A stretch of DNA of 62,743 nt, the filler included, from Asterionella formosa (lineage: Eukaryota), in the NCBI GenBank assembly GCA_002256025.1. It is 15 parts of 15 records of this genome, joined end to end, with 100 filler letters (N's around TTAATTAATTAA, not from the genome) between each part and the next. Parts side by side here need not be neighbours in the genome. Positions count along the whole stretch, not along the records: positions 1 to 21,979 come from NKIB01002896.1; 14 more parts are not named here. One strand, written 5' to 3'. This document shows, one piece after another, positions 244 through 59,866 of this stretch. A program made the position numbers and the translations under genes. The notes below the pieces were generated by a model. That model had not been told where the DNA came from and did no database searches. It saw nothing but the letters and a program-made list of their open reading frames with translations. The first letter of the stretch is position 1. Each line of letters opens with the position of its first letter.

Positions 244-1630
244 TGCCTCAAGTTTGCTTAGCGTGTGTGTAGTACGTGCACTGTTGACTTGTGTACATTA
301 CAGCAGTGACTTAGCTACTAAAGTGCGTTTATAATATCATACTCTGTAGTACGATGCGGAATACAGTTCCCAATCAACATTGAATGATTGATAAGATGAT
401 AATGTGATATCACGATAGGGTTACTTCGATGCATACATCACCAAAATATGATAGGTAATATTGAATGATGTTTATCACATAGCTATGATATATTGATCAT
501 GAAACCATGATGATTTAATAAAATGTTTATGATATAATTTTCATCAAAATATGATTATGCTAAAAGAATACAACGATAATGAAATACGATAAAATATGTA
601 CGCAAGTGTTATCAATATATCATAGAAAATAAAACAATCAATCATAAAGTATGTTAATTAAAATTTACATTTAACTTTTAAATGTATACAGTAAAAGCAA
701 AAAATTTGATATGATAGTATTATATAGTGAATAGGATCTATGTATATGGATGTGTTGATATCTACATCACCATAATATGATTTGTGATATGGGTTGTTGA
801 TGCATATCACATACCGGTATCCTCCACAACCAGCCTGCACGTTCATCGTCGTGTTGTTTTTCCTTGTTATATATGTATTGTGTAAACATTACGCTGGCGC
901 AACATGCATATTACACTGTACTCTGTTCAACAATTACTACACTCGGTTGCCATCACACCAGTTGCACCTCCACAAGCGCCGCAAAAGCTCCGCGTTTCCC
1001 ATCCACTGTTTTACATCATTCATAGTCTTCTTGCCCTTTGACAACTTTCCAAATGGCATTTCATGGATTTCATGGAAAGGATCCTCAGTCAAACAAGAAA
1101 CAACATGACTTACTTCCGTCGGTTACACTACAAGACTTTATGTTTTCGGAAACAAAGATGAAGAAACTTATGAAATCAATCGAAGATTCATTTGAATACA
1201 TTCAAAGATCAGATGAATTTGAACAGATTCATAATACTCCAGAAAAAATAATGAAGTATGCCGATTCAATAGTTGCAGAGATTGAAAAGAAGGAAAGATT
1301 GCTTTCGAAGAGAAAACCCAAACAGTTGTTCTTCGCAGATGAAGACTCTATTCCTACAGAGTCACAGTTCCATTCAGTGTCGTATTTTGCTTGTTCTCCT
1401 GAAATCGCTGATAATGAAGAAGAATTCATTGATTCTCATTCATTTGATGAACAAAATCATGCGATGAATGAAAATATCGGCGGAAATGTGGCAGACATCA
1501 CTTCGGAAGTACAAATGGTTGAAAAGTTGCAAAACCAAGAAATATATATAACTATTCGTCCAGAACATCAAGATGAACATCATGAAAGCAGAGAAAATAT
1601 TGAATTTCTAAAAGAAAAGATATTCAAGAA
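244..1630 (+). mobile_element. Internal fragment of DNA transposon family B, including 5' part of its ORF (1038/1053..1649)
   Basis: Colinear with 19140..20518; ORF MAFHGFHGKD... also found at 19918 (+) and 52153..52668 (-); similarity ends near 1630. Confidence 0.8.
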
Positions 1631-2600
1631 AAACTCATTTTTAAATTGAAACATATTTGATGAGAATATAATCACCGACTCAAAGCATCATGCTTTCGGA
1701 GCATCGCCCTGCAAGAACTTACCTAAGATTCCTTTAAATTGATTATTCAATACATTCTGACATTCTCTCAACTTTTTAGTGCACGTGCCACCAAATGTTG
1801 ATTTGAGATTGAAGGTTGGATGGCATGTATTTCCTCCTGTTACTTGTACCAACATGAAGTTGATTTGAGCTTTTGTCAAGAAGGAGCGAGATTTTGGCAT
1901 TAACAACATATCAACGCATTTGTGCACAACAAAGTTTTCTTGAGTAAGTAGTTGTGATCATAAAGCTGGTGACATCTAATGTTGAAGACAATGCAATGAT
2001 ACAAAACAAAGGTGGTAGTTTCACCAACATGTTTTTCTTATAGACAGGTCTGTTGTCTCTAAATAGGTTTTTAAAAAGTTACTGCCAAGCTCATTTGAGA
2101 GTCACTACTAGCTTTGTTGTGTTAATTGATTTTAAGGGTATCAAATCAATGTTGACTGATGATTACTATGTACTCTGGTCTTAAAAAGTACTACAGGTTT
2201 TACATTGACAAGGCAGCCTCATCAAAAATCTCGGGGAAACTAGCAAAACAACAAGTTTTAGCTTCAATAGTGAACCCGGACAACTGAAATTTTTTGAGTT
2301 ATACCGGTTCGGGCATTGTTGTATGTGATGCATATACCAGTGTTTCGTCATGCTCCTGAAGAACTCTGTCTGTTGTTTTTTATTGCGAGGAGGGTTGTCT
2401 TTTCGAAGGGGCTAATTAATTCAAACCAGGATATGTGCGGCATTCCTTTTTGTCGGTTGTACTTTTTACAGTGACCACAATATGCAATGATTATTGTTAT
2501 ATGGAATATCGGTACAAGATTCAGTTGCGGATGACTTGCCTTGTCCTCTACCCTCTGAGAATAAGAGAAAGAATAGCCATTCCATTTACCATTTGTCAAC

Positions 2601-4915
2601 ATGTCAAATCAGGAATATGAGCAGGTAAGCGACATGAGCCATGAACTGCAGAAGTCATTGACATAAAATGTATTTCACAAACCGTCACTCACTCCTGACT
2701 GCTAGATCCGCGCCGTCATAGACATGCACCAGGCGCCTCGCTTCGGCCACTCATCAAGTATTGCCTTGCTGATATCGCCTTACCGAGATGATCAACATGA
2801 CTACATCAACGGGGTAAGTCGAAGTATAAGGTGTGTACTTCTATTGAAGCAATTGACGTGACATTCTTATTCACCCACAAATTCCAGATTTTGTCATTTG
2901 CCTTTTTTCTATTCATGATACTCTTTATGTGGGGTGTTCTGCTGCTTGGCTTCAAGTGTTTGGGACATGAAAGAGTAGGATGTGCTGCTGGAGGCAGCAT
3001 TTTGGACGTAGAAGAGATGGGTCACGATCCGATTTTGAAACCACGATTGAGAGCGATCATTCAACGAAGCTGGCGGATTCAAGTAGCATTCTTCTTGACA
3101 GCATTTTTGATTCCGATAGCGTCAGGATTTTTTCTAGTGAAAGGACTGCAGACTGTAAATAAGGCACTTCTTGAAATTCAAAATATCAATGGGGTACGTA
3201 CCGATACCTGCACTGCAAAGATTTCCTCTCGTACATCTGGTTGGTTTTCTCACACCAAACCTGCACACCTGCAGGACATTGAATCCGTTGTCTTCCGAGC
3301 AATAGATGTCACAAACTCTTTGATTAAAGCACGAAGTAATATAGCGAGAACAGATATTCATGCAATCGCGAATATTGAAGGGTTTTGTACCGGCAATTCC
3401 ACTATCTTTGCGAACGCATCGATCCCTAGCAACCTAGGACCGAACGACACCGGCAACGATGTTAAGCTCGCTTTCAAGGATTTGGACGTATTTTTAGATG
3501 TTGACTTATCTGGAGCAACGAGGGCACTAAACAACATTGTTTCAGTAACGCAGTCAGTTGACGATTCTGTCAGTTTTGTTTTCAAAAACGATTGGTTGCT
3601 CAAGATGTTTATCCTCTGTCTCAACGTCATTGTCGGATTCTTTTTTGTTGCCATCTGTTTATCCAAATCTAACTTCGTTCATTATCCATTCCATGCCATG
3701 TTAGCATATATGTTGGTTCCGGTTTTTTGCATTCAGGTGGTATTGGCGTCTCTGTCCACAATTAGTTTTGGAATTGCAACAGTTGCGAACGCAGATTTTT
3801 GCGCTGGAGGTGACTTCCCAGGAAGCCCTAGAGGGACCATGCAGGATGTGGTTCGACTTCACAATATGAGCAAGCACGATCCTATTTTCGATTCTTTCCA
3901 GTATTATGTTGGGGTAAGAGGCGGTGACGACGTTACTGTTCATCTATTCGTTTAGCTCTAACCTTGTGTTGTCCTTGAACAGGATTGCATGACTGAAAAT
4001 CCATTGCATTTCATTCAACCCTACCAAGCTCAGCTGCAATCCATTGTTGGTGTTGCCACCACCTTTCTGAAAACTGTCGATGACTTTGGGGTGGACTCTG
4101 TCAGCAAAGAATGCGGAACCAACGTTAAGCCGGTGGTCACCGCAGTCCAATATTTACTTGAAAATCTAGATATTATTCAAGGTAATGTGGCATCTGCTTT
4201 GACATTGTCGGATTGCTCCACAATTGCTCCCATTTTGAGGAGAATTTTAATCGGGGATTCTTGCGCCAACGCTACCACTGGGCTAACTTGGATGTTTTCA
4301 AGTTTGCTCGCTGTTTCGCTATTGGGAATGACTTTGCTTTCACTACGAGCGGCATTGTACAATGCCACGATTCAGGTACCAACGAAGGAGCGAACAGACA
4401 AATGGGAATGGCAAGAGTACAAGGAGTACATGGCCAGTTTCTACAATGACGCACTGCAGTGGAAGTTTTATGCATCCCCCCACAAACAAGGTGATCTGGC
4501 TAATGCACAATCATTTGAGACATGTATCACCACGAGACCATCACTTGACACAGAAGACTATGAAGACGAACCTGAATATAGTAATGACGATCATGGTCGA
4601 TGGGTTCTTCAGGATGAGGCTTTGATGCTCAACAATGACGGAAGTTTTTCAGAAGCTTCAACCTACACAACCCCTGTCAAATTTGCGCAACGGCCGACAA
4701 CAGCGCTCGAGGAGATAGAGGCTGCAATTAGGACACGAGGATTTTATGCGGATGTCATCGACACTGAGATCCAACCATTGGAGCCTATGATGGTTCTAAA
4801 CGTTCGCGGCAAAACACCCCAGGCACCCAGGAAGCTGCTTAAGTCCATTCAACGAACTAGCCTTGGCCTCCTAGCCGACTCAAAAATAGTCAACCGGAAA
4901 CATAACTTGGTTTGA
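2601..4915 (+). CDS. Tweety-like multi-pass membrane protein (multi-exon)
   Basis: ATG 2601, donor GTAAGC 2625, acceptor near 2705, donor GTAAGT near 2814; ORFs 2831..3955 and 3989..4915 with about 5 TM segments and GCAAG, ADFC, DCSTIAP Cys motifs as in Tweety-like proteins; exon boundaries approximate. Confidence 0.6.
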
Positions 4916-4999
4916 TGCTCATGAGCTCAGAAATTAAAATAAGCACTGTTAACAGTTCATGCATTTATTTTATATCTATAGGAACTCGCTCTAATATCT

Positions 5000-5948
5000 G
5001 TACTATGAAGGGTCCAGAGTTGAGTTTGGTATTCCCACTGAGTTTGGCCTTCTTTCCAAACTAACAGAGCTATCGCTTCAAAGTGATTCCCAGGAGTTTG
5101 ATGCATTCCCATCTGCACTAGGCATGTTGACTGACCTCGAAACACTACGCTTTGTTGGTTCCAAAAGTGGGAGGTTCTCCAAACTGAAGTTGGAATATTG
5201 TCAAATCTTCAAGTTCTGGACTTGTCCTTAAATAATTTTGAGGGTTCATCAATTCCGTCTGAGATTGGAAATCTCAGCAAACTTGCATACTTGGATTTGT
5301 CCTACTGCACCTTAATTGGTGATTTGCCAAGCAATGTGCTCGAGCTTCCTAATCTCATGGTTCTTAAATTTAAGGTAAACAGACCAGAAAAATTGCCTTC
5401 TGGGATCTTCAACAATAAGTCAAAAATCGAGCACTTGGACACCATGTCAGCAAACAGTCTGTCAGACATTGGGTTTTATGAAGACTTTTCCAATGGTACA
5501 GTTGTCTGGAAAAGTGAATTGGCCAACCTGGAAAAGATTGGACTTTTAAGTGCCCTTACGTATCTTGATTTGAGCAACAACAATTTCACTGATTTGGAAA
5601 TATCTACTGAAATTGGCAACTTGACCAACCTTCAACATTTGGACTTTTATAATGCCAAAGTTGTGGTCACAATCCCAAAGGAAATTTTCCTGCTAACGAT
5701 CCTCTCATACCTTGACATGAGCTCAAATAATTTAATTGGAGCAGTCCCGCCCCTCAGATCTGTCAGGGCTGACGTCCCTCCTGTACACGTTGATGTTGGT
5801 CTCTAACTATTTGAGCGGAACCATCGATTGCAGTCTCTATCCAGTTCTTCAAATATCTGCTGACTGTTTGGACAAAGTCAATTGCACTGGTGGTTGTTGT
5901 TTTATTAATTTTTATACTGAAGGCAATTTCGCTACGGTTTATTGTTAG
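5000..5948 (+). pseudogene. Leucine-rich repeat protein fragment (plant-type IPxEIGxL LRRs), frameshifted and 5'-truncated
   Basis: Repeats IPTEFGLLSKL, IPSEIGNLSKLAYLDLS, ISTEIGNLTNLQHLD; frame change near 5750 into a Cys cap ISADC...CTGGCC typical of diatom LRR proteins. Confidence 0.7.
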
Positions 5949-6111: not shown

Positions 6112-6858
6112 TTTAATGATGAGAGCAGCTTTTCCCTCTATTGATGGAAACAAAGATGCTGGCAAGTTCAACAGTGAATACAAGAAAACATCCCAAATGC
6201 GGAAATGAGCGATGTGAAAAAATTTCGTAATCAGAATCATTCTATAACAATGTGGAAAGTCTCTTACATTTTCATATCTCCTTCTATGCTGAATCTCAAT
6301 TGTAGATGCAGTATGTGAGGCTTAAAAATGTCAAGGGGAACAAGTAGATTGTGTTTGTTTATGATTTGATTGGCTAGATTGTAATGCTGGTCAACACAAC
6401 AGATCATGTACTATGTGCTCTGTGTGCTGAGCCATTCTGATTTCATGTGATTTCTTCTCCATAAACTCTTAATTGAGTGATTATTAATGTAAGGTGCCCT
6501 GCACATGATGATTACTCAAAGATATAGTGATCACTTGACCAACAAGCAATTGAAGATGTTATTGCAGACAATCATTCCACTCATCATCACTAGTATTTGG
6601 TCGTTATTGCAAAAATCGAAGTTAGGACTCCTGATGAAGATGATGATGAGCCAAAGTACATTACTTGAGCTGGTACATTATTCTACCAAGAAATTTAAAT
6701 ACGGGAACCTAATAGAAATAATACATATAGTAATTAACTATACGTAGTCAAAAGGGTTACTATTTAATTTACGATGGCATTTATCAGAATTAATAGATGA
6801 TATCAAAAAATTATGATCAGATGATCATAGGAATATGATGATTTTTATTTGCAGACAA
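6112..6858 (-). mobile_element. Terminal fragment of DNA transposon family B
   Basis: Reverse complement matches 18030..18830; terminus reads TA|TTGTCTGCAAATAAAAA (CCG decayed to TTG). Confidence 0.8.
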
Positions 6859-6860
6859 TA

Positions 6861-7464
6861 GCAGCGCCAATCTTGTGCCACACTTGTGCATTTTGGATTT
6901 GTCGGCTCACTAGCATGGCGGCATAACATGGTGGTAAGTAGATGATCTTTTGTACAGTAGTGAGGTCGGTGTATTGACCGTAAAGGAGGTTCCCAGCAGC
7001 ATTGGCTATTGGGCCCATGAACTCCCCATTATCGTCAGAGTGCTTCTCCCAATTTACTAGGGCTTCATCTATGGTTGGGAGTGTAGGAGCGTACACCAAA
7101 CCGGCCACAGCAAATAACTCAGGATCGATGTGTACCAAAGGTATCTGGTTGGCGGTGATGTCTCCATTGATTCGGGGTAGCGGAAAATACAGTGCACACA
7201 AGTGATGTTTACCAGGTCATTTACGCGAAGCGGGACAGCGAAAGCTTGATGCATGGTTTCGCTGCCACTGACTACCTTGCTTGCCAATTGTTTGATGGTG
7301 AGTGCCTCCGGAACCAGCGCGGTAGTGATCTCATAGATGCGCCGGTAATTGCCATCAAGAAAATCGAAATCGTGGTCTTGGAAGCGCTTGGCGCAATCGC
7401 CAGTGATTGTCATTTCAAGCTTTGGTAAATAGTAAAACAGAAGACCGTGTCTGGATTGTGACAT
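6861..7464 (-). mobile_element. Degenerate ORF remnant, probably retroelement ORF1/gag-like, interrupted by family B
   Basis: Broken ORFs 7069..7464 and 6845..7201 with protein-like composition; cut exactly at the family B terminus; family identity is only an impression. Confidence 0.3.
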
Positions 7465-7754
7465 GTCACGATAGTTTGAACCATTGTAAATGATTGTAAA
7501 AGTCGACTGTGAAGGAGAAGTGCAGTGGCGCAGAATTGAAGCAATCGAGAGGGGTAAGTAAAGCTTTTTCGGACCCCCTGTTTTGGTGTATTAATGCAAT
7601 GTTATCCTTCCATAGGCTCCTGAGCTTGCTTTGGTACTCAGCACTGCTAGAGTCAATCTTCCGTTTTAACAAGGTTGCTTTCGGAGTCAGCGGTTTTGAT
7701 GAAATAATGATTTTTTTATACTTTTCAACTGCTGGAGCAAGGTTGGGGTGTTTT

Positions 7755-8024
7755 GTGATAGGGATTGCTGAAGGCAATCCCAGGGCTGGAAAACCGAGGG
7801 GCAATTGGCGTCTGTTGTCTTGCCAAAATGCGAACATATGAAATACACAAAATATTTTTAATGATGGGCAATATCGGACCTTTGGCAATTTTCGAGGTGA
7901 AGATAGGAAATATACAAAATATATTTTATATGATGGGCAATAGTAGGCTAAAATTGACATTTATGCTAAATTTGTGGGCAGTAGGTAAGCGAATGACTCG
8001 ACGATAGCTAGAGCGGGAATTGCC
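7755..8024 (-). mobile_element. End of TIR element family C (GGCAATT termini)
   Basis: About 250 bp inverted copy of 8144..8395; ends CGATAGCTAGAGCGGGAATTGCC. Confidence 0.7.
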
Positions 8025-8143
8025 TCAACAATACCCTTCTAGCGCCGGGGGCGCCACTCGTACGGTCAACCTACTCGCGCCACCCAGCCTCGAACACATG
8101 TATACTCGTAGGCAAGAGACCACCTCGGGCGTGTATTGCCTGC

Positions 8144-10065
8144 AGCAATTCACAAACTAGCTATTGTCGCGCCATTTGCTTACCTTCTTCCCACTCATGG
8201 AGTGTAAATGTCAATTTTAGCTCGCTATAGCCCATCATGTAAAATATATTTCGTACATTTCCTATCTTTACATCGAAATTTGCAATGGGTCCGATATTGC
8301 CCATCATTAAAATATATTTTGTATATTTCCTATATTCGCATTTTGGCATTACAATTTGTTGCAATTGCCCCTCGGTTATCCAGCCCTGTGATTGCCGAAA
8401 TTGGCAAGGGGTCTACTTAAGGAAACAATTTTATAGACTCTACAGATTTTAATATTTTATATCTAGAACTCACCTCGTTTTTGTTCGTCTCCTGAAAAGT
8501 GGACTCCGCCAATTCACCTTTCACCATGCCGATTGTCGTCCATCACGACCGGTTTGAAGCGAAATCAGTTCACTGATGACGCCAGTAGCAATTCATTGTC
8601 TAACGGATGCGGTTGGTTGTTGTATTGCTTGTCTTCTCGAGGGATTCATGTTGTCGCATCGTCCATATTTCGTCGGATGAACGATGATATCGATACGTCT
8701 GGTGTTGGTGGCAAGTTTTTGCTCCGGTCATGTATGTAATGATGCTGGATACTCGACCGGTAGTCACCTAGTCTACATACGTAGTACGTGGTACTAAAAA
8801 AACCATGCATGGTCTAACCTAAACTTTAAGACTTACTTTGAACACGTTATAATATTATCTCTGTAGACTCGGTATTGTTTTTACGAGACCAGAATGTTAA
8901 ATTTGATCGTTCACATATTGATTGATTTTACGTACCGTATGCCCGATTTCGTCCTCACAATTATAATTCTCACTCTATCCTGCCTGCCGTTGCTCAATTC
9001 GGGCTTGCAACAGGAACTTTCGACTTTCTCATGAGCCCATTGTCTGCTGTGTGTTACGCTTGTTAGAGCGGATATGTGAGTACAATAGTGAAACACTGAA
9101 TGTGATCGTAGATACTAATTGTCGAAGTTCCGATTTGATTTCTTCCATGGTCCATTTTGATCGCTTCGATCGTTGTTTGTCGTTCCACCCTGTTGTTTTG
9201 TTTCGATAGTATATATCTATATAAGAACAAGTGTTTTTCCCGATGACTACTCTTTGACGACATATTGTTGTTGATCGTATTTGTTGATTTGTATAGTCGT
9301 TTAGCTACCATGATGTCAATATTGCCGCCAAGCAATGCTTTTCTTGTTCTAACTCACTTTGCTACATTTCTACTACGATTTCGTTTCACAAGCTACATAA
9401 ATACTCATCTAGAGAGAGTCAATAGTGCTGGAGCAGCATGGCGATCACGCTTGCTCAGAATGGAATGATCAGGGTTGCTTGTTTGGTGCTGGGCGGAGGA
9501 ATGACTGTGGCGGAAATACTGCTATGGTGTCAGGCTACTACAGCGATGCGCATGGTTGCAGAAACCAGGCCATTTACGCTACATAATGATGCAGGTCTAA
9601 ATTGGGTTCAGCTTTTTTTCTTCTTCTTTCGGTCTTTGATTGTGTGGTGATGGAAAGTCAAGCAATGTTGCCTATGTAAGTACTAGTACAATGATTCACA
9701 ATGCATGCGTCTCCATTGAAACTCCTATTTTTCACTTCATTTCTAACCCAAAACATTTTTTCTATTTCTTATTTGATGCAACTTATTACATCGCATTTCA
9801 TACTTTGGTTGCTCCAAACATTATGTTCAATTTTCATTGATGTTGCATGTTGTTACAATCGTTCTCGTGTGTTTTATGCTTGTTGTACCATCCGATGCAT
9901 ATTACCATTATTCTGACTGTCATGCTTAAAATCGGCAATTTTTATGCCAAAAAATTCGATGTGCCACATATTGCCCTTACATAAAAATTACTTAAGAAAT
10001 TACTTACAGCTAAAATAACTTAGAAGTACCCAAATGACAAGACGATAGCTGGAGCGGGAATTGCT
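8144..10065 (+). mobile_element. Non-autonomous TIR element family C, about 1.9 kb
   Basis: Left AGCAATTCACAAACTAGCTATTGTC and right GACGATAGCTGGAGCGGGAATTGCT form imperfect TIRs; ends shared with 25139..27393 and 57450..57613; no clear TSD. Confidence 0.7.
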
Positions 10066-11208
10066 GCCGTAGTTGCGACGTCACTCACAGTAAATTGTAT
10101 CAGTACCCCAGATACCAGGTGAGCGATCTCGCTCAACTAGCAGACACACCTATAGAGTTCGGTCTACATAGATATATCAGAACTCTATCAGGAGAGAACT
10201 CGACTAAAACCTATTTGAATACTTTAGTGTCAACCAAGGAGATTGGTTCACACACAAGGATTAACAAATAAGCTCATATATTCAACAAATACTACTACTT
10301 CTAGTTAGATACTTCACTTTGAATTCAAAAAGAGTCAAATTAGAATTAACAATATTGATGTATTCTCAAGTCCCAGTCGTGGTTCCATTGACCCAGGGTT
10401 TCAACCTACTAAACATCATGAATAGCACCTTTCATACATTCATACCAGTTCGACATCTTGAGTCTTTCAAGCAAGCAAGATGAGATTGATGGAAGCTCCG
10501 CAGAAGCTTTGTTGAGTGCAGTGAGTTAATTCCATGACATTGCTTGCCTAACCTCCAGCAAGAAATACCTTTTTCCTACTCCAACGGTGCCTTTACAGAA
10601 ATCGCCTTGTACAACTTCTAGTTACCGGTAGGTACTTCACCAGGTACCTAGTACCTGGTACTGTTTGCATAATTAATAGCGACCGGTAATATTTTGCTGT
10701 TGCTCCGCCAACTGTCTACGTGGTACTTCTGATACAGTATCTTATTATGTTGGTGCCAGATATCTAGAAACTACGGGAACAAATACATACATACCTGTAC
10801 CGGGGTACCTGGTACTGGTACCAGTTGCATCCTACTGCTTGCATCGAACATAGTACCTGGTAATTAATAAGCAGTAAGTACATGTGCACATTTGCTTTTC
10901 TGTTCGCCTGACGACTCGAAGAAAGCCGTTGATTTTAATTTTTCTTGATTTCCTGTTTACCGTATAGTAGCTATTCATAGAGTATAATCCGTACCTTGTA
11001 CTACAAGGTACCAGTACGCTGATATCTATGACGCTCTTGTGTGTACATTATGCATTTATTTTATATGTGGAAGCCGCAGTCAACAATAACTTCATGCATA
11101 GAGTGAGCAAAATCCCGGCTCACAAAGAAAGTCCGCATCCACAATCTCACTATTGATCCATCAACCTTTTCCTGTCATCTCTCCGTCCTTCTCCCATCCA
11201 AGGTCAAC

Positions 11209-14901: not shown

Positions 14902-15149
14902 TGTCAAGAATATAGCATCAATGGCTATAATGAGTCACAGGGAATGTGGACTCGACTAAAGTCCAATGAGTCAAATGGTGCGTTCCCATGTCAAGAAGCT
15001 TGCTAAGGAGATTGATGTCTTAGATCAATCAGAAGAAGGTTTACATCAACGAAAAGGGAACACGAAGAACAGGTTCTCTGAGTGTGATGAATGGGATTGA
15101 AACTTAGTTTTAGTTTAAGCTTATAATTAAGAAACAGTGAGAATTGACA
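14902..15149 (+). repeat. Possible 5' LTR of the downstream copia element
   Basis: TGTCAA...TTGACA inverted ends just upstream of gag; no second LTR and no clear PBS seen. Confidence 0.3.
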
Positions 15150-15327
15150 GAGTAAGGTCAACAGCGAAAACTAGCACAAAGGCTAGCAGCAGAAAGAAGA
15201 TAACAACACTACCGGTAGTGATATAACAGGTAAGTCCAATGTAAGAGGAACGCGTCAGATGGGAAGGAGTACAAGACCTTTTAACATGCTTTAAAGCGTA
15301 CCTTTGAAGGCCACAGGCTATTCAGGA

Positions 15328-16233
15328 ATGATGGGAAGTGACGAAGACACGTCAGTGAGGTTGCTGACATTCGATGGGCAAGATGCTAAATGGCACATGT
15401 GGAAAGCGAAGTTTCTCGAATACGCGTGCTACAAGAACTTTCAAGGAATACTTAACGGTGACAAACTACCAAGAGGAGAGAAAGACCTAAAGGGCAATAC
15501 GATCGTGTTGTCGGATGCTGATGAGAGACGCATCCGAAGGAGCAACACAGTTGCTTACGCAAGTCTGATAATGGCATTCCAGAGTGGGCCATTTGGACAC
15601 GTAAATATTGCAAGAAGTTCCGAGTTTCCTAACGGCAATGCTAAAGAAGCATGGGACAAGCTCATTTCTACGTATGAGTCAGGCAACATGATGGCGAATG
15701 TCATTGCCTTGTCCCACCAATGGACGGAGTGCACTCTAGTGGAAAACGAGAACCCCGACAGCTGGTATGTGGAGTTGGATCGTATCCGGGAATAATTGGG
15801 CAATACAAACTCCGCCGTTTCGGATGGTGCCTATGTGGCACACATGATCAACAACCTACCTGAAAGCTACAAGAGTTTGGTAGAAGGAAGATTCGGCCTT
15901 GCGCGCAACACGCTATCGGTCGAAGAGATAAAGACAGACATCCGGGACTACTACGATCTATATGTCCGGGATGACGTCAAAACGAATAACAAGAACAAGA
16001 GTGAACAGGCCTTCTACACGAAAGGGAAGTTCAAAGGTGACTGTCATAAGTGTGGCAAGTATGGCCACAAGGCAAGGGCAATAGTGCCGACAAGAAGGAG
16101 CTCACTCCTGAACAGAAAGAAAAGAGGAAAACGATCAAGTGTTTCAAATGCCAACGAATGGGACACTACGCAAGTGAGTGCACTAGTAACAGTGCATCTA
16201 AAAATAATAAATGCGAAGAGAACAACACGAGTA
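15328..16233 (+). mobile_element. Ty1/copia gag pseudogene, truncated by family A insertion
   Basis: FDGQDAKWHMWK gag start, NPDSWY, NNLPESY; in-frame TAA 15793; knuckles CHKCGKYGHK and (after frameshift) CFKCQRMGHYASEC; ends at TA|CCG junction. Confidence 0.85.
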
Positions 16234-18029
16234 CCGCCTGTAAATAAAAACCATCATGAACATAGGATCCAGGGTATCGTACGCTAAGTGGCACAGGATT
16301 TTTGCATATATGATACTTTTTCGATCAAAAATATGATCAATGTATAATATAATTATGATCATGCAGTAAACTTTTACCGAGCTTGAAGTATGATGATACT
16401 ATCATAGTTATAATACCATTGCATCATATAATTAGTCAAACATGGTCATATGATGTGTATACTTTTGTCATGCATCTATCTTAGCATGATTGTAATTCTC
16501 ATCAATATCATTGTCTAAAATAGGATAAAATGGATCGAAAATTAGAACTATATTTAAGAATGGTTCTATGTTTTTATATCTTGAGAGGCTACAGAATGTT
16601 CTACAATGCTCTCTTCGCAATGATTGGTGCTTCAGCTGCTCTCACTTCCACATTCCCCCCAATCCAATTCTGAAGGTTGTTGTAGTAGTGCTGGTTGCCT
16701 TGCCGTTGTTCCCCTGCTTGCTTTGTTCCATTTACTCCTGAGGGTTCTGAGTTTGCATTCACGCACTATTGAATCCGTTTCGTTGTTCCAATCAGCCATA
16801 ATAACAAAGAGAAGCAATTCATTGTTAGCTGTTCATGTTTTGCTTACACAACAGCATGCATTTCGCTTCTATCTGCCTTCGCTTACCACAAATTGAGGAA
16901 TTAACTGATGCATATTTCTGTAAAAAAATTTGTTATTTGAAGATTGAACGAGAAGCAAAGTATCGATCAATAAATGGGCTCCAACACTGCTGTTTGTTTC
17001 AACTTACAAATACTGTTTGTCTACCATTATGCTGAAAGAAGCAACACATATGTGTCAGTTTTTCTAACAGTTGTGCATTGATCCAAAGATGGCTGATAGG
17101 CAGCACTTACCAATTTCTTTTGTCCACATTGATGGTTGGCCAGCCACCAAATCGAAAAGGATCTATTGAATCACTGAAAGGGGACGAGTCATTCTTCCGT
17201 GCATGCATTTCGCTTCTATCTGCCTTCACTTACCACAAATTGAGGAAGTAACTGATACATATTTCTGTAAAAGAATTTGTTATTTGAAGATTGAACGAGA
17301 AGCAAATTATCGATCAATAAATGGGCTCCAACACTGCTGTTTGTTTCAACTTACAAATTCTGTTTGTCTACCATTATCCTGAAAGAAGCAACACATATGT
17401 GTCAGTTTTTCTAACAGTTGTAGATTGATCCAAAGATGGCTGATAGCACTTACCGATTTCTTTTGTCCACATTGATGGTTGGCCAGCCACCAAATCGAAA
17501 AGGATCTATTGAATCACTGAAAGGGGACGAGTCATTCCGTATTTGTAATCCCAGCAACTGATCATCTTGGCATTTGCTCTTGACAAACCGTGATGCTATG
17601 CACAGCTTGTTGATTCCGCCCTTCTCCATCATATTCACTCATTCGTAGCCGCATGGTGTATCATCGTGCTGTATTGCTGTCACTTCAGTTATTCGCATCA
17701 TGTGTTGCTTGAGATCCATCATTTCAGGAAGTGGATGCAGCATGACAAGCAAGGAACATGAAAGGCATTTGCTCTTGACTTCTTACCATCAATTGATTCC
17801 GCCCTTCTCTTCTAAGCCGCAAGTATCATTGTGCTGTATTATCAATTTTGTTTTCCGCGTCATCATGTGTGATGATCCTTCATTTCAGGAGCAAATTGTA
17901 TGCATGACAAGGAACAGGAAAACATGATTTCAAATGTTTCAGCCATGAATAGATATACATAAAGATTTGTAAGAAGTTTTAATGTATATATAGTTGAACA
18001 TTTGCACATCTTTAAATACATTCATTATA
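16234..18029 (+). mobile_element. DNA transposon family A (left part), nested in copia gag
   Basis: Begins TA|CCGCCTGTAAATAAAAA; 16760..18029 matches reverse complement of 58991..59866. Confidence 0.8.
16854..17540 (+). repeat. Tandem duplication of about 345 bp inside family A
   Basis: Units start GCATGCATTTCGCTTCTATC at 16854 and 17201; single unit in the 59-kb copy. Confidence 0.9.
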
Positions 18030-19932
18030 CCGTCTGCAAATAAAAACTATCATATTTCCATGATGCATCATAGGATTGTGATCATCTGATCATACCTTTT
18101 CATTATATCATCTAATAATTTTGATAAATGCCTTTGTAATTTAAATAGTAACCCTTTTGACTACATGTATTTAATTATTATATGTATTGTTTCTATTTGA
18201 TTCCTGTATTCGAATTTCTTGGTAGGATAATGTACCAGCTCAAGTAATGTAATTTTGCTCGTGATTTCCATCCGTCATCACTCCGATTTTTGCAACAACA
18301 ACGAAATACTAGCGATGACAAGCGGAATGAAGGTTTGCGATAACGTCTTCAATTTGTTGGTCAAGTGATCTTTATATCTTTGAGTAATCGTCATGTGCAG
18401 TGAACCTTTGTTCATAATCATTCAATTAAGAGTTTACAGGAGAGAAGAAACCATTCGAACTCGTAATGTTTCCGCACACAGCGCACAGAGTATATCCGTT
18501 TCGTCCACTTCGCTCAGCATGACAATCTCGCCAATCAACCCGTAAACAAACACATTCTACCGGTACTTGTTCTCGTTGACATTTTCAATTCTCACATGAT
18601 ACTGCATCTACTATTGAGATTCAGCATAGAAGGAGATACGAAAATGTGCGTAACAGACTACTGTCCACATAGCTATAGTTACTGAATGATTCTGATTAGA
18701 ACGCATTTCATTTTCATATCGCTCGCTCGTTTCTGCATTTGGTATACTGTACTTGAATTAATTATTGAACTTGTCCGCATCTTTGATACCATCAAGAGAG
18801 CTAAAGCAAGTGGCTCCTTTCATTGTTGTTTTCTTGTAGGAAAAATTTGATATCTGATATCTGCATCATCATTTGCTTGTTGGAATTGTCCGTTGCCTCA
18901 AACTTGCTTGGCGTGTGCGTGCACACACTGTCGACTTGTTTTCAATGGTATGTTGTTCTTGTATTCACTGTTGAACTTGTCCGCATCATTGTTACCATCA
19001 ATAGAGCGACACGTGGCTCTCTTCATTGTCGTTTGCTCCTGGAAAAGTCGGTGTCCGTGTCATCCTCATCAATAGAGAGACAAGTTCTTTCGTTGGAAAA
19101 ATCGGTACCGTTTCATCATTTGCTCGTTCGAACCACTGTCCGTTGCCTCAAACCTGATTAGCGTTTGAGTACCGGTATGTGCACTGTCGACTTTAGTACA
19201 TTACAGGCGGAGTGACTTCTTCGCTACTAAATTCTGTAGCACGATGCAGAATACAGTTGCTTCCCAATCATCTCATCATGATTGATCAGATGATACTGTG
19301 ATATCAAGATAAGGTTACATCGATGCATACATCACTAAAGTATGATACGTAATATTGAATAAAGTACATCACATAGCTATGATACATTGATCATAAAACT
19401 ATGATGATTTTACAAAATGTCTATGATATAATTTTGATCAAAATATGATTATGTTAAAATAATACAATGATAATAAAATACGATAAAATATGTACACAAG
19501 TGTTACCAAGACATCATAGAAAATAAATCAAGCAATCATAAAGTATGTTAATTAATATATATGTTTGTTGTTTAATGTATACAGTTAAAGTCAACAGTTA
19601 ATATGATAGTATTATACAGTGGATAGGATCTAAGTATACGGATGCGTTGATATGTACATTACTAAAATATGATTTGTGATATGGATTGATGCATATCACA
19701 TACCGGTAGCTATCCTCAACAACCAGCCATCACGTTCATTGTCGTGTCGTCTTTCCTTGTTTTAGCTATATACCGGTATATGCCAGCATGTGTATTGTGT
19801 AAACACTACGCTGGCGGAACATGCATATTACACTGTGCTCTGTTCAACAATTACTACACTCGGTACCATCACACCAGTTCCACCTCCACAGGCGCCGCAA
19901 CATAGTCTTCTGGCCCTTTGACAACTTTCCAA

Positions 19933-21509
19933 ATGGCATTTCACGGATTTCATGGAAAGGATCAGTCAAACAAGAAACGAGACTTACTTCCATTGTTTAC
20001 ACTACACGACTTTATGTTTTCGGAAAAGAAGATGAAGAAAGTTATGAAATCAATCGAAGATTCCCTTGAATACACTCAAAGATCAAATGAATTTGAACAG
20101 ATTCATAATACTCCAGAAAAAATAATGAGGTATGCATGCCGATACAATAGTGGCTGAGATTGAAAAGAAGGAAAGATTGCTTTCGAAGAGCCGAGGAAAC
20201 CCAAACAGTTGGTCTTCGTGGATGAAGACTCTATTTGTACAGAGTCACAGTTCCACCATCCATTATCGTATTTTGCTTATTCACCCAAAATCGCTGATAA
20301 TGAAGAAGAAATCAGTGATTCTCATTCATTTGATGAACAAATTCATGCGATGAATGAAAATATCGGCGGAAATGTGGCAGACAACACTTAAGAAGTAGAA
20401 ATGGTTGAAAAGTTGCAAATCAAGAAGCATATCTCACTATCCGTCCAGAACATCAACATGAACATCATAAAAACAGAGAAATTATTGCTTTTCTAAAAGA
20501 ACCGATATTCAAGAAAAAATCTGAGCTAGATCAAGACCTCGAATTCAAGAAGATCAATGCAGACAGAGATGTGATGCTGGCTAAGGCAGTTAATGCTCTG
20601 AATAGGGAACGAAGTCAGAAACACAAAATTGAATCTTTTTCCAAATCATACATGGAAGAAAAAGAATTTCTTTGTAAAATCATTGAAAACAATCCAGAAG
20701 GCAGCTACTTTTGTGAAAAGTCGGCATGTGAAATGTGTAGAGTTATTATGCCAAAGCAAACGGCATTTTCCTTGAGTTTGCCGAAATCGCATGGACAACT
20801 AAAATTGTGGAAAGAGTTGTACACTCGTACTCCGCAAGATATATGCAATTACGCCTCTGTTTTTTATGGAGTCAAAGGTATCAAAAAATCATGTTCAGAT
20901 TTTAAAGATCTTGCATATTGGGACCTTGAACTAATCACCTCTATGATCCATTATATAATTCATGAACTTCATCCAAGTGATGTAAAGTTTATATTTGATC
21001 TTGATGAGAACCCAGAAAAGGGTAATAACAATCCATATATATACCAAGGTGATTGTCTTCCACTTCATCACGAAAGTAACTATGTGCAAATTGTGTATTG
21101 CAAAAAATCAGATGAGGAGGAAAACAATCATTTTGTGCATTATCTTTTTGCTATAAATGATGGATTATGTCAAGTCCGTGATCCAGGAAAAGATGCAAGT
21201 TTGGATGAACATTACGATCAAGTATTTCACCTTGCCCGTAAGTACTGCATCATCCCCGGATGCAGAAAAGAATTGGAATTGTTATGCACCGACACAGGAT
21301 ATCTTCCACAAGAATTCCATATACCTGAAGAAATTGGTTTCTCGGAATCTTTCTATACTGGCACCAAAGCACCATTGCAGATCAGTATGGCCACTGAACA
21401 TGATTGCACTAATAGTAATAGTAGTATAGAGCAGAATCAATGTTTTCCTATCATCTATGATATGGCTTGCATTTGTAGAAGTCTCACACTAACTATAATT
21501 ATTATGTAA
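19933..21509 (+). pseudogene. Family B ORF: acidic N-terminus plus putative Ulp1/SENP-like cysteine protease domain; frameshifts and stops in 5' half
   Basis: Fragments 19918..20157, 20209..20391, 20571..21509 align to intact 1038..1649 in the 5' part; W-DLELITSMI, NNHFVHY, QVRDP, EQNQC order resembles the C48 His-Asp-Gln-Cys core. Confidence 0.45.
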
Positions 21510-21533
21510 CTACTAAGTATGCATTAGATTCCA

Positions 21534-21979
21534 TTAGATCCATTCAAGATCAACATCGTCATCAATGTCCCGTTGATTAATGAGGTCATTATAATCAATA
21601 TTCTTTTCAGGAACATTTGGTTGAAGTGATTCAACAAATTCATGCATATCCTCTTTACTTAGTACGTTGGGAAATGAGAAGTATGAGTTCGGGTAGATGA
21701 TATTTGTGGTGGGAGTAGCAATTCCTCTAGGATTCCTTCCATATTCAGATCGATTCTTTTGTGAAAGTCCAGTGTAGATTTCCATATAATAAACGAGTAA
21801 ATCATCAGTCCATTGATCAGTAAGACCATTTGAAACAGAACTTTCTTCCCTCACACTTTTTTTAATAAGTGGTTTCCCACCAATGTCGACAAAATCGGTA
21901 GAATGACGAATTTCGTTCTCTGAAATTTCATGGGTATCTGGATTGAAACCCAAATATTTTTGTTGTAATCGGAATTTTC
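21534..21979 (-). CDS. C-terminal part of an unknown ORF convergent with the family B ORF (truncated by contig end)
   Basis: Open frame of at least 139 aa running toward the gap; acidic tail; no recognisable motif. Confidence 0.45.
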
Positions 21980-22079
21980 NNNNNNNNNNNNNNNNNNNNN
22001 NNNNNNNNNNNNNNNNNNNNNNNTTAATTAATTAANNNNNNNNNNNNNNNNNNNNNNNNNNNNNNNNNNNNNNNNNNNN
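21980..22079. other. Artificial contig linker N-TTAATTAATTAA-N (100 bp); 13 more start at 44022, 45464, 46905, 48346, 49787, 51228, 52669, 54110, 55550, 56989, 58428, 59867, 61306
   Basis: Identical spacer with stops in all six frames; contigs decrease in length (21979, 21942, then 1342 down to 1338 bp). Confidence 0.98.
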
Positions 22080-24042: not shown

Positions 24043-25138
24043 AGAAGCACTGGTGGGTTGATCTGGGAACGATGCAGTACAAGGAAGGTATCAAGGTAGC
24101 TACAATACAGAGTTGTACATACCTAGGTAGTATGGTCACTCTTTTCAGTGTCATTGCTCCTTCTATGAATACCGATATATACGGTGCATAATATAGATTC
24201 CATGCCACACATGCACCGTGTCCAACCTGCAGATTCCAACAATTTTGCCGTTGCATGTTGTTCTTGTATAACGTGCATATAACAGTCAAAATAGAAAGGT
24301 ATCAAATGTTGCTTTATGCGTTGATAGTAGAATTTGTACCGGGATACAGATCTAATTGACTGTAAAATTGTACTACAAGCTGAGAATTGACTGACCTGGC
24401 TGATTGATGGTTGCATTTCTTTCATGCCCCTGTATTCCTGGACCCCCCTGGGAATGTCCGGTAATCGAGATAGTTTGCTTAATCTTTTCCATAGAGGAAA
24501 AACCGGGTTTTACCGGACCTTCCTTTGAGGTCGTTGTTGGACCCGAGGAGTCCGGCAGTTGCGGTCATTTTGCCGAAATAGATGACGTGACGCAGGACAG
24601 GCGTTTATTTACATAGAAGACGTCGTATATGCATTGTGATCACCAATTAGTGACATAAAAGGTTTTTTATGTTGATTTTATTCGTCAAAACAGGGAAACG
24701 TCAAGAAAACAAAACAATGACCAGGGCAATAGAGGGGCGACCAAAGCAAAGTAAGCAATAGTATGCAAGTCTTGCTTATGTTGCTTTGATCTCTCCAAAC
24801 TCAAAATCATTCTCCTTTTTCGGCTGAAGTTATGAAAGCAACCTATCTTAGGGCCATTCTCATCAATTTTCAAGATATCGCGAAATTTGAAATTTTTTGA
24901 AAATGTATTAGCAACGCCAACTCGATTTCAACTGAATTTCATTCATTCCAAACTAGACACTGTATCACTAATTTGTATCACAGTGTATCATGGAGTAACA
25001 AGGATTGTTAGCAGTGACAGGCCAGCTACAAACATCTAAATATGTCTGAGCAGTAAAGGAGGTCAACCTGCGAGGGCGTCCCAAGCAAGTACACAAGATT
25101 ACAAGTAGGTAGACTCCTCCCGAGTAGGGTATTACCTA

Positions 25139-27393
25139 GGCAATTCACAAACTAACTATTGGCGCGCTTTTTGCCACTACATTGCCCTTTCAGTTTACAT
25201 TGAAAACCTATTTTAGATAGTTTGTATGTTGGATACAAACTAGCCAATTGCCCATCAAATAAAACATATTTTGTATATTTCATATGTACAGTTTTTGGAT
25301 AACTCAATCCTGCAATTGGCTGCCCATCATATAAAACATATTTTGTAAATTTCATATGCTCCGTTTTTCGACTGCCAAACTACCTTCAATATATTCAACA
25401 GCCCCTAGATTTTAATGCCGAAATCGACTGCCGTTTATTTAAGGGAATTTGATTACTGATATCTATAGCCCCTCAATTGCCTGCCGTTTACTTAAGGAAA
25501 ATCGGCTGCCGAAATTGGACGAGAGTAGGAGGAGCTACATGAAAGGCATGAAATGATGGTTTTCTTTTAAGTGTCGACGTCAATTCCACTATTTACATCC
25601 CTGCTATCTTCCAGCATGCTCCAATGTATACAAAATCTGGTCATTGATGTCTCAAGTACTGACTCTTCATCAAATTGATCTGGCTGGTTGTTGGATAATT
25701 CGATTTCTTATGGTATTCATATAATTGCATCGTGCTTGCTTCGTCACAGTGGCGCCAAAATTTCGGTTCCCCTTTCTGTTGATTTCCGATAGCCTTTCCG
25801 GTCAACTCCTTCGCTATATTTGATATGTAGTGATAGATAAATTAATGATTGTTCAAAAGCGACATCAATCAGTAGTTGAGTATCAAAACTCAAAACGTAA
25901 TGGTAGGTCAAAGTTAGGCTTCCATCTCGCCATTGAACCGGTATTTTCGTCAGATATGATCAGCCATTAAATTTTAACTATATTTTTGTAGAATGTTTTC
26001 TACGTGTTCTACATTATCTCAAATCAGATCTCGGCAGCAAGTTTTAGTGCTCACGTGTTGGCTTTTTTCCGCTGCCCTACAAAAGCATGTTTCATTGCTT
26101 TCTAATCACAATATTACTTATGTTACTTCTGCATAATCTTCTACAATGACAAACGAAAAGTCGTCAATCTCAATGAGCTATCGCAAACTCCGCAAAGCAG
26201 CTGGAACATGATGGAGCTGGTGTTCTGCATTAACTCGTATTCAACAAGGAAGAGAGGACAGGTATGTGTTTGTTGATTGTTGTTGTCATATTTGAGTTCC
26301 CGCCATGGTCGAGTATACTAATTATGACACATATTTCTTCCTCTTCAGAACGTTGATAAAGGCTATTGTCATGTTACTCCTCCACTTCCTGATGATGCAA
26401 CAAATCAGTATCCACTGGTCAAACCAGCCTGTCCAATGAGGTGAAATATGTTGCCAGTTGATTGTTGTTTTCACGAGGTATAATGATGAACACACACTAA
26501 CATTATTCTTTTCCTGTTTCCCAAAGCTAGCAAGCCACTTTTATCGAAACTCGCACGAAGATTGCAAAGTCTTCAGGACGCAAACAATGTGGGCAACATA
26601 TTTCGCCAGCACCAACAACATATCACTCCATTGCTCCCTATCAACCTAATCAAAACTGTCCTCCTCAATTTTCTAATTCACAAACGTCTACATCAGCCAG
26701 TAAATTTTCGACGCATCCTGCTCCTCCTGCCGGATACTGCCAGAATTCTGCACCGCCAGCACCAAGAAACCTCCGCTTTCAAGCTGTTGCTCCTCCAACA
26801 CCTCCGCAACCACAAGTCCAAATCAATTTATAAACCAGCATTGCCTCTTAATCCATTCAGGCATCGGTTTCTGCTCCGCCAGGCCCGATCTGAAAATTTT
26901 TGAAATTTCGTTGCAACGACAAAAAAGTGTGAGTTGACAATTGTTAATGAAAATGCGTTGACAAATTTTCACACGATTTTTCCGCTGACCCATTTTCTTT
27001 CTCACTTTTTATTCTACTCCCTGCTTGTCATTTTCACGTGTTACCTTTCGATTTCCGTTTCATACTTTGGTTGCTTAACAACATCGTGTCGAATTTTCGA
27101 TGCTTGTTACAATCATTCTTGTGTGACTATTTTTCATGCTTATACCGGTACCGGTACACCGGTATTCGGTGGTCCATGCATTTTTGATTTGTCTAAATAA
27201 ACTTTTTCCCATGAAAATTCTACTCCTGACGTTGCTCGATGGTCCCTGCTGCTCAAACCTAAAATTGATTGCCGAAAAATCCAATGTGCCCCATATTGCC
27301 CCTAAATAAAAAACTATTTAAAGAAACCAAAAATTACTTAGACACCCACAGTTCTCATCGAAAAGCAAGACGATAGCTAGGGTGGGGATTGCC
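25139..27393 (+). mobile_element. TIR element family C, divergent copy, about 2.25 kb
   Basis: GGCAATTCACAAACTAACTATTGGC ... GACGATAGCTAGGGTGGGGATTGCC; subterminal blocks (TTGCCCATCA, ATGTGCCCCATATTGCCC) shared with 8144..10065. Confidence 0.7.
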
Positions 27394-50875: not shown

Positions 50876-51227
50876 GCATCTGCAAATAAAAACTATCAGA
50901 TTTCCATGATGCATCATAGGACTGTGATCATCTGATCATAATTTTTCGTTATATCATCTAATAATCTTGATAAATGCCCTTGTAATTTAAATAGTAACCC
51001 TTTTGACTACATATATTTAATTTTATATCTATTGTTTCTATTAGATTCCTGTATTCGAATTTCTTGGTAGGATAATGTACCAGCTGAAGTAATGTAATTT
51101 GGCTCATCATTTCCATCCATCATCACTCTGATTTTTGCAACAACAACAAAATTCTAGCGATGACAAGTGGAATGATTGTTTGCGATAACGTCTTCAATTT
51201 TTTTGGTCAAGTGATCATTATATCTTC
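50876..51227 (+). mobile_element. Terminal fragment of family B
   Basis: TCTGCAAATAAAAACTATCA... colinear with 18033..18380. Confidence 0.85.
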
Positions 51228-52152: not shown

Positions 52153-52668
52153 GTATGTTTCTTGGTTTTGCAACTTTTCAACCATTTCTACTTCTGAAGT
52201 GTTGTCAGCCACGTTTCCGCCGATAATTTCATTCATCGCATGCATTTGTTCATCAAATGAATGAGAATCACTGAGTTCTTCTTGATTATCAGCGATTTCG
52301 GGAGAATGAGGAGCAAAATACGACACTGGATGGTGGAACTATGACTCTGTACGAATAGAGTCTTCATCCACAAAGACCAACAGTTTGGGTTTCCTCTTCG
52401 AAAGCAAGCCAATCTTTCCTTCTCTTCAATCTCAGCCACTATTGTATCGGTATACTTGCTTCATTATTATTTTTTCTGGAGTATTATGAATCTGTTCAAA
52501 TTCATTTGATCTTTGAGTGCATTCAAAGGAATCTTCGATTGATTTCATAAGTTTCTTCATCTTCTCTTCCGAAAAACATAAAGTCGTGTAGTGTAAACAA
52601 TGGAAGTAAGTCTCGTTTCTTGTTTGACTGATCCTTTCCATGAAATCCGTGAAATGCCATTTGGAAAG
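52153..52668 (-). mobile_element. Family B internal fragment
   Basis: Reverse complement colinear with 19924..20430 and 1044..1545. Confidence 0.85.
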
Positions 52669-57613: not shown

Positions 57614-57616
57614 TAA

Positions 57617-58527: not shown

Positions 58528-59866
58528 TATACCTTTGATCATAACATATTGATCATATGATAAACGGTGTCGTTGATGAGAAAATGAACAATCAAAATTT
58601 ATTTTCAAGAATCAGGATTAATTGATCTTAAAAATATGATCAAATGATCCTAAACACATGAGCATATTCAGTTTTCCACTGCACTATTGTGGTATTTCCA
58701 TGATGGAATTAATTACCAGCAATTATACAGTACTACCGGTAGGCCATATAAATTTTGGTCAATATGTCTATATTCATAAATGTATGATTTCGACCATTTG
58801 AAAAATTGGTGATGACTCCCGTTTATTAAGGGGCTAAATTAAATCAGCCACTGACTTGTAGGTACAAGAATTGACACACAAAAAATTGAAAAAACTCAAC
58901 AGGTCGTGGAAAACTATGAACTCATCATGAATTGTATATATTTGAACTATGTATAATCAAAATTGATATTAGTATACACAGGTTGTGCCGTATAATGAGC
59001 ATGTTTAAAACTATGCAAATGTTCAACTATGTATACATTTAAACTTCTTACAAATCTTTATATATATGTATTCATGGCTGAAACATTTGAAATTATGTTT
59101 TCATGTTCCTTGTCATGCATACACTTTGCCTCCTGAATTGAAGGATTAGCACAGATGATGACGCGGAAAACGAAAGTGATAATAAAGCACAATGATACTT
59201 GCGGCTTAGAAGAGAAGGGCGGAATCAATTGATGGTAAGTCAAGAGCAAATGCCTTTCATGTTCCTTGTCATGCTGCATCCACTTCCTCAAATGAAGGAT
59301 CTCAAGCAACACATGACGCGAAAAACTGAAGTGACAATACAGCACGATAAGAATGAGTGAATATGATGGAAAAGGGCGGAATCAGTTTTGTCAAGAGCAA
59401 ATGCCAAGATGATCAATTGCTGGGATTACAAATACGGAATGACTCGTCCCCTTTCAGTGATTCAAAAGCTCCTTTTCGATTTGGTGGCTGGCCAACCATC
59501 AATGTGGACAAAAGAAATCGGTAAGTTCTGCCTATCAGCCATCTTTGGATCAATCTACAACTGTTAGAATAACTGACACATATGTGTTGCTTCTTTCAGG
59601 ATAATGGTAGACAAACAGTATTTGTAAGTTACAAAGAGCAGCGTTGGAGCCCATTTATTGATCGATACCTTGTTTCTCATTCAATCTTCGACTGACACAT
59701 TCTTCTACAGAAATATGCATCAGTTACTTCCTTAATTTGTGGTAAGTGAAGCAAGATAGAAGCGAAATGAATGTTGTTGTGTAAGCAAAACATGAACAGC
59801 TAACAATGAATTGCTTCTCTTTGTTAGTATGGCTGATTGGAACAACAAAACGGATTCAATAGTGCG
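58528..59866 (-). mobile_element. Family A internal segment (uninterrupted copy)
   Basis: 58991..59866 matches 16760..18029; continues past the TA where family B is inserted in the other copy. Confidence 0.8.

Follow-up and report, generated by a model that had tools for sequence, protein, structure and literature searches.

What interrupts a copia-like gag gene in the genome of the freshwater alga Asterionella formosa, and where do the interrupting elements begin and end? We addressed this question in a 62,743-nucleotide (nt) window of assembly GCA_002256025.1, the whole stretch of DNA that was analysed, in which 16 contigs (two of 21,979 and 21,942 bases, followed by 14 of ~1,340 bases) are joined by N44-TTAATTAATTAA-N44 linkers. 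For the region 16232-21979, a first-pass annotation had described two related DNA transposon families, A and B, the first inserted into copia and the second into the first, each at a boundary TA|CCG; it had read them as abundant, multi-kilobase cut-and-paste elements that target TA. Its observations stand in so far as they concern the nesting, an empty insertion site, and five fragments of B, and its interpretation in so far as it concerns abundant, nested repeats with inverted termini; the TA|CCG boundary, the targeting of TA, and the division into two families have to be given up. As a whole, the evidence is best explained by a single class II family with terminal inverted repeats (TIRs) and two types of subterminal arm, A-type and B-type, an explanation that we consider probable. 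The right border of the annotated region, 21979, is the end of a contig and not the end of an element.

Nested insertions in a copia-like element

The insertion of A into a copia-like element, and of B into A, is real. On the plus strand, 15295..16234 is a frameshifted fragment of a copia-like gag that includes two CCHC knuckles; it ends where the A-type arm begins, so that gag is interrupted at 16234/16235. The gag fragment matches Pfam Retrotran_gag_2 weakly (E 0.0055, below the cut-off), and in BLASTP it aligns with the gag-pol of the other copia element in the window (59967-61303) at an E value of 6e-11. The A-type arm, which is the left part of a non-autonomous element, follows on the plus strand at 16235..18030, with its TIR at 16235-16257 (CGCCTGTAAATAAAAACCATCAT), and contains an internal 347-bp duplication (16854-17194 and 17201-17537, 96% identical in BLAST), despite which Tandem Repeats Finder reported nothing in 16000-21979. 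This arm is in turn interrupted by B at 18030/18031. A second A-type copy lies uninterrupted on the minus strand at 58528..59866; in a self-comparison, its portion 59866-58990 is 86-93% identical to 16762-18030, and it passes through the B insertion point between 58991 and 58990. The empty site at that point reads CATTATAC|GGCACAACC, and the filled copy reads CATTATAC|CGTCTGC. Upstream of gag, many contigs have loose ends at 14759/14766, where their flanks are heterogeneous, and at 14820; these probably mark the outer border of the copia long terminal repeat.

The B-type element inside A extends over 18031..21404 on the plus strand and comprises a TIR (18031-18053), a non-coding arm up to ~20148, and a decayed ORF (open reading frame) for a putative Ulp1-like protein (~20149-21404). 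From 21405 to the contig end at 21979, the remainder of this ORF is replaced by an unrelated high-copy sequence that starts with TGCACTAATAG and stems either from a rearrangement or from a third level of insertion. This sequence contains a minus-strand ORF, P0003 (147 amino acids (aa), 21537-21977, open at the contig end), for which no Pfam family and no relatives, longer ones included, were found. The joints 18094 to 20003 and 18094 to 21852 have sides of only 25 nt and were not used to assign the sequence from 21852 onward to B.

Counting this copy, B is present in the window as five fragments, 78-93% identical in the self-comparison. A B-type terminus (CATCTGCAAATAAAAA...) at 50877..51227 on the plus strand runs up to a contig end and is 93% identical to 18033-18380. 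An inverted B-type arm at 6115..6857 on the minus strand is 78% identical to 18066-18824 and has its terminus at 6857 (TGTCTGCAAATAAAAA, minus strand); it is bordered by single-copy DNA on both sides, and a contig of single-copy depth covers 6826-7470. The other two are internal fragments, namely 244..1636 on the plus strand, which corresponds to 19144-20521 (82% identical) and is truncated inside the ORF, after which single-copy DNA follows, and 52154..52668 on the minus strand, which corresponds to 19925-20431 (91% identical). Since 2647-5314 is single copy, 244-1636 and 6115-6857 are separate truncated fragments. Between them, 2801-5803 holds single-copy ORFs of 384, 317, and 223 aa, of which the last encodes a protein with leucine-rich repeats; Pfam matches neither of the other two.

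The 17-nt motif at which these elements start occurs four times in the window with up to two mismatches (16234, 18030, 50876, and 6842-6858 on the minus strand), as compared with 0.05 occurrences expected from the shuffled window, and none of 100 shuffles reached four.

Arms, termini, and abundance

A scan of metagenome contigs with the terminus core gave at least 118 loci, and eight of the 118 listed are true relatives by blastn (L014, L019, L035, L039, L045, L050, L053, and L055). Two of these, on separate metagenome contigs, are complete, non-coding elements of 4.26 kb (L045 118-4377 and L055 33-4301). They are 97.1% identical over 4292 nt (L045 121-4373 against L055 36-4297), and their flanks differ immediately outside on both sides. 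Each begins with an A-type arm, which matches window positions 16230-18030 and 59866-58528, and ends with an inverted B-type arm, which matches 18033-18394. The window A arm matches L045 114-1540 at 92% and 88% identity and L055 at 91%, and the uninterrupted second A copy is 93.6% identical to L045 643-2002. With both arms on one element, A and B are arm types of one TIR family and not the two separate families of the first-pass annotation.

The two arms align with each other over their first 23 nt only. Complementarity between the L045 arms at 120-140 and 4353-4373 amounts to 86%. The terminus pattern is found nowhere in L045 but at 118-133 and, inverted, at 4360-4375, and the longest ORF of the element is 104 aa. 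A third A-type left end (L039) and a third B-type right end (L019) have other flanks again, and in L053, a deletion derivative, the loss of internal sequence has brought 18163 next to 19374. The general features of class II TIR elements are thus present, with inverted ends of 21-23 nt on one element and different flanks for each copy, and the A/B anatomy reads, from sequence comparison, as that of a TIR family with many non-autonomous members. The first-pass annotation had expected a right end consisting of an inverted copy of the terminus followed by TA; the inverted copy is present in L045, L055, and L019 and at window position 6857, whereas a TA follows none of them.

Fourteen termini, four from the window and ten from the eight homologous metagenome contigs, define a conserved 23-nt end, CGTCTG(C/T)AAATAAAAA(N)(Y)ATCAT, that is common to A and B. 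It matched nothing in viral contigs and nothing in genome contigs. The conserved part begins at CG (16235 and 18031), one base inside the previously proposed cut, and the A start at 16235 coincides with the starts in L045, L055, and L039, the flanks of which all differ. Of the 14, eight start with CGT and the others with CGC, CAT, TGT (twice), AGT, and CTT or CAA; mostly, these departures appear to be one CpG-type change away from CGT, as CpG decay would give. The base that precedes the terminus varies (C in three ends, G in three, T in four, and A in four), and the C at 16234 and 18030 therefore belongs to the flank. Consistent with this, the best-supported loose end of the region is 18031, at which 105 contigs of run X1 break off into heterogeneous flanks (agreement 0.37). 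In 2 of the 14 termini a TA lies right next to the CG end, and a TA at the offset proposed earlier, one base further out, is found in the two window copies only. The string TA|CCG is thus a coincidence of these two copies, and, on the same comparison of ends, the target is not TA. Small clusters of TGATCA-type subterminal motifs were seen only at 6751-7000 and 58451-58700.

As for what the target is, the terminal CG is palindromic and could either terminate the repeat or represent a duplicated CpG target. L045 is flanked by ..TTAGTA| on the left and |CAGTCAAACG on the right, and L055 by ..AACAGA| and |ATGTAGTG. The single empty site (58990/58991) comes without a matching right junction; a second one was sought by comparing L050 with window 10261-10317, where the homology ends 43 nt short of the insertion.

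The family is very abundant. In run X1, the summed word depth of single-copy bins on the same contig is ~750-950, as against 1.05-1.54 million for the A bins, 3.3-3.9 million for the B bins, and ~1.75 million for 20656-21979; the depth ratios in runs X2 and X3 are similar. The summed contig depth of the family is ~10^3 times the single-copy depth, which can only be read as copies of the order of thousands, given that it is a contig depth and not a copy number. The earlier description of abundant, multi-kilobase mobile repeats with inverted termini is supported. If the depth ratios do correspond to copy number, then the family makes up many megabases of the algal genome and shapes its size; it clearly hampers the assembly of that genome. 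The DNA itself is widespread: 0.86 of the sampled words of 15000-21979 are present in one run labelled algae metagenome, and 0.23-0.42 in each of 21 further runs, many of them labelled freshwater metagenome, such that DNA of this alga is found in freshwater metagenomes of 12 studies (22 runs in total).

Around the family, the window is eukaryotic DNA, with long ORFs for an epimerase, CRAL/TRIO, TTI1, a thioredoxin-like protein, an ion channel, and copia gag and reverse transcriptase; Rfam found no family in it. The linkers lie at 21980-22079 and at 13 further places up to 61405, and any feature that appears to cross one is an artefact. Another very high-copy repeat occupies 7316-10650 (summed depth 0.75-1.6 million, as compared with ~800 for single copy). 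It includes an imperfect palindrome of 624 nt (76%) at 7773-8396, has weaker relatives at 25061-25745, 27058-27392, and 57451-57616, and contains ORFs without Pfam matches. Direct repeats of ~194 nt, 91-94% identical, are present on a short contig at 52769-53296, with a relative at L019 627-958, and a 425-nt repeat is shared at 94% identity by the second large contig (35825-36249) and a short one (47615-48035).

The reading frame of the B-type element

The ORF associated with the B-type arm (20409-21506 as printed) has no Pfam match. It has five relatives with E values from 1e-79 to 3e-23, and a profile search retrieved 119 matches, mostly fragments, of which 73 had E values of 1e-10 or lower. 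By tblastn, the relatives P0004-P0008 map to 20164-21404, and the window copy is decayed: its start codon is replaced by GTG, and its reading frame is interrupted by a TAA and by frameshifts. From 21405 onward, the window no longer resembles any of the relatives: where they go on into a conserved ..QPEDDSGWSCGPF.. segment, the window lacks it; larger copies with B-type arms contain an ORF of ~600 or more residues. For P0006, no longer relatives were found, viral contigs gave no matches, and the 23 pattern matches in genome contigs were not confirmed.

A first structure model, built from six sequences, was unusable (pLDDT 35.9). With 46 sequences, AlphaFold2 gave a mean pLDDT of 57.5, with core blocks at 70-89. 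In VIA-align, this model superimposed on NEDP1 with a Z value of 8.6 (152-159 residues aligned) and on SENP2/Ulp1 with a Z value of ~8 (150-180 residues), and all of the 50 rows listed (Z 8.6-7.3) were CE-clan proteases or the uncharacterised Legionella protein Lpg1148. The best Foldseek match was ChlaDUB2 (E 0.012, probability 0.96); the best matches, all with E values above 0.001, were mostly CE-clan cysteine proteases. Peptidase_C48 clusters at 0.87-0.88 in the Atlas serve as a lead only. CE-clan proteases carry their motifs in the order His, Asp, Gln, Cys, and the ORF alignment has, in this order, a conserved His, Asp-Pro, and Gln..Trp-Ser-Cys-Gly-Pro. Relative P0004 has Asn in place of the Asp, and P0094 has Ser in place of the Cys. 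With moderate confidence, resting on the predicted fold and this motif order, we take the B-ORF protein to be a very divergent Ulp1-like protease.

P0094 (1513 aa) and P0091 (1016 aa), which come from other sources, are distantly related to the B ORF, which their C-terminal domain matches. In the N-terminal region of each, comparable His...Cys-Gly-Pro motifs are visible, which by eye make up a further protease-like domain; P0094 contains a long Lys/Glu-rich repeat as well. Pfam gave nothing for either protein even at an E value of up to 5, and P0091 had no matches in PDB by phmmer.

Put together, these parts suggest how the family might work. Its members would move by cut-and-paste, through a transposase that would be encoded in a part of the autonomous element lying outside the window and would bind the common 23-nt ends. 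The non-coding 4.26-kb members would be mobilised in trans, and the protease-like ORF would be an accessory gene, as in Ulp1-carrying Mutator and Ginger1 elements.

Relation to known transposons

Several results weigh against a single class II TIR family with an accessory protease. No transposase domain was found by Pfam in 53 window ORFs (12 + 19 + 34, 12 of them repeats), in agreement with the first-pass annotation, which had recognised none in the visible part, nor was one found in the relatives of the B ORF. The only two complete copies, L045 and L055, have no target-site duplication outside their CG ends, and the right flank of L045 is copia pol while its left flank is not; L045 is thus either no simple insertion or a chimeric contig that joins the flanks of different copies, as is frequent for repeats with thousands of copies. 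Because both contigs may be chimeric, the missing duplication is weak evidence. Further, summed contig depth is not copy number, and among the matches listed only 8 of 118 loci are real relatives. For the protease, the sequence profile of the ORF family has no matches in PDB (E up to 10), Pfam, including PF02902, gives none, and the model is of medium confidence, with Z values near the background of 7-8 that VIA-align itself states.

The first-pass account, in which two separate families with ends in CCG target TA in the manner of Tc1/mariner or of a CMC element with a 2-bp duplication, draws on the reading TA|CCG(C/T)CTG at both insertions and on ends that are inverted repeats. We give it next to no probability: CCG stands at 2 of 14 ends, and TA at its offset in those two only; TA abuts the conserved CG end in just 2 of 14; the loose end is 18031 and not 18030; A-type and B-type arms share one element; and the window ORFs scanned contain no DD(E/D) transposase. 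An account that dispenses with TIRs altogether, in favour of a Helitron-like or recombinase-borne element or of ends produced by short-read assembly, is highly improbable as well. It would accommodate the absence of a duplication at the two complete copies and the fragmentary assembly of such repeats (14 of the 16 window contigs are ~1.34 kb), but not a single 23-nt end found against 14 different flanks in the window and eight metagenome contigs, nor ends that are inverted copies of each other; moreover, there is no 5'-TC, no 3'-CTRR with a hairpin, and no A and T as flanking bases, and Rfam finds nothing. Membership of Ginger1 is suggested by the Ulp1-like ORF and by the window copies, which can be parsed as CCGT-C-TGCAA and CCGC-C-TGTAA. 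However, a 4-bp duplication next to CTG predicts NCGT and ACGN ends in equal numbers, and we observed 10 of the former (N not A) and 1 of the latter (N not T), which places the T inside the repeat. This parsing also leaves an extra C before TGY, the Ulp1-like protein starts with its own Met (P0007) and lacks an integrase part, no ORF longer than 118 aa lies in the 2.1 kb upstream, and Pfam finds no rve or integrase domain in the scanned window ORFs and relatives; we therefore hold Ginger1 to be very unlikely.

The remaining alternatives retain much of the single family. In one, the terminal CG is a duplicated 2-bp CpG target, the counterpart of TA for Tc1/mariner, and the same family begins with TCTG. 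CG is symmetric at both kinds of end, and the non-CG variants (n = 6) include TG twice and CA twice, which are products of CpG decay; a CpG marks the exact insertion point in the only empty site (CATTATA-CG-GCAC), and the flanks of L055 fit, the left one showing CA and the right one CG. Against this, the filled site reads CATTATAC-CG-TCTG, with one C more than predicted, L045 needs a further change (AG for CG), and telling a palindromic dinucleotide from a base pair of the TIR takes paired empty and filled sites, of which we have one empty site only. This version is unlikely in our estimate. The bolder proposal built on it, an undescribed superfamily with CpG integration, a 2-bp CG duplication, and a CE-clan protease that stands alone and is very divergent, present in thousands of copies in a freshwater alga of wide distribution, we consider more doubtful still. 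A Mutator-like or CACTA/KDZ-type element with a Ulp1-like accessory ORF, of the kind seen in Ulp1-carrying Mutator-like elements (MULEs), is possible, if on the unlikely side. It would account for the separate Ulp1-like ORF, for the long, dissimilar subterminal arms, and for the internal-deletion derivatives, and Ulp1 domains are known in Mutator transposons (PMC2836005). On the other hand, the two complete, possibly chimeric copies have neither an 8-10-bp nor a 3-bp duplication, the ends are not CACTA, and none of the ORFs scanned contains a MULE, Transposase_21/24, or KDZ domain.

We thus return to a single TIR family with two arm types. It is a TIR DNA transposon, and Tc1/mariner, CACTA, and Helitron each fail a testable defining feature; it is to all appearance an ordinary sort of element, and possibly an undescribed family. 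A transposase and the true target site would tell a new family of a known superfamily from something new. Our literature search brought up the paper on Ginger (PMC2836005) and found nothing on such elements in algae.

Among the systems compared, Tc1/mariner has similarly short inverted termini and possibly a palindromic 2-bp target in common with the family. It differs in its TA duplication, there being no TA on the right side of L045 and L055 and a TA at only 2 of 14 ends, and the elements described here are several kilobases long, with long non-coding arms. In the case of CACTA/CMC, the termini are CGTCTG instead, and no 2-3-bp duplication is present at L045 or L055; Helitrons, for their part, have no inverted termini and insert between A and T, whereas here one end is an inverted copy of the other and A and T do not flank them.

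Ginger1, as described in PMC2836005 (Bao, Kapitonov and Jurka 2010), has (i) 4-bp duplications of CCGG (75%) or CCGT/ACGG (24%) and a 5' TGTNR, (ii) a length of 2.6-7 kb, with TIRs that measure 40-270 bp and with Ulp1 or OTU as the C-terminal domain, and (iii) a transposase in which a Gypsy-integrase core (YPYY, H2C2, DDE, GPY/F) is fused to Ulp1 or OTU. On this description, both are multi-kilobase TIR elements of similar size with a Ulp1-type domain and a CG-centred sequence at their ends (CCGG/CCGT in Ginger1, CG(T) here). However, CCGG is the target duplication in Ginger1, which itself starts with TGTNR, whereas here the T, and perhaps the CG, lies inside the repeat; accordingly, the four bases before CTG are CCGT once and CCGC once among the 14 termini, and no 4-bp duplication with a TGTNR terminus was found. 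Likewise, Ulp1 is fused behind a Gypsy-type integrase in Ginger1, whereas the Ulp1-like protein stands alone here, with no integrase seen.

At the level of the protein, the predicted fold of the B ORF and its order of His, Asp, Gln, and Cys motifs resemble Ulp1/SENP/NEDP1 (Pfam Peptidase_C48), while its family matches neither PF02902 nor any PDB chain by sequence. According to PMC2836005, the Mutator transposons that encode Ulp1 domains include those of hydra, lancelet, Arabidopsis, maize, rice, and melon. A Ulp1-like protease that sequence profiles do not see would, if the model is right, be a distant branch of this recurring link between SUMO/ubiquitin-like proteases and DNA transposons. Mutator-like elements that carry Ulp1 combine TIRs with a separate Ulp1-like ORF, vary in their internal regions, and have many non-autonomous derivatives. 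The A/B family differs from them in that Pfam found no MURA-type transposase in the scanned ORFs, that its TIR is 23 nt, and that no 9-bp duplication is present at L045 and L055 (possibly chimeric contigs), whereas it resembles them in its accessory protease ORF, its non-autonomous derivatives, and its variable interior.

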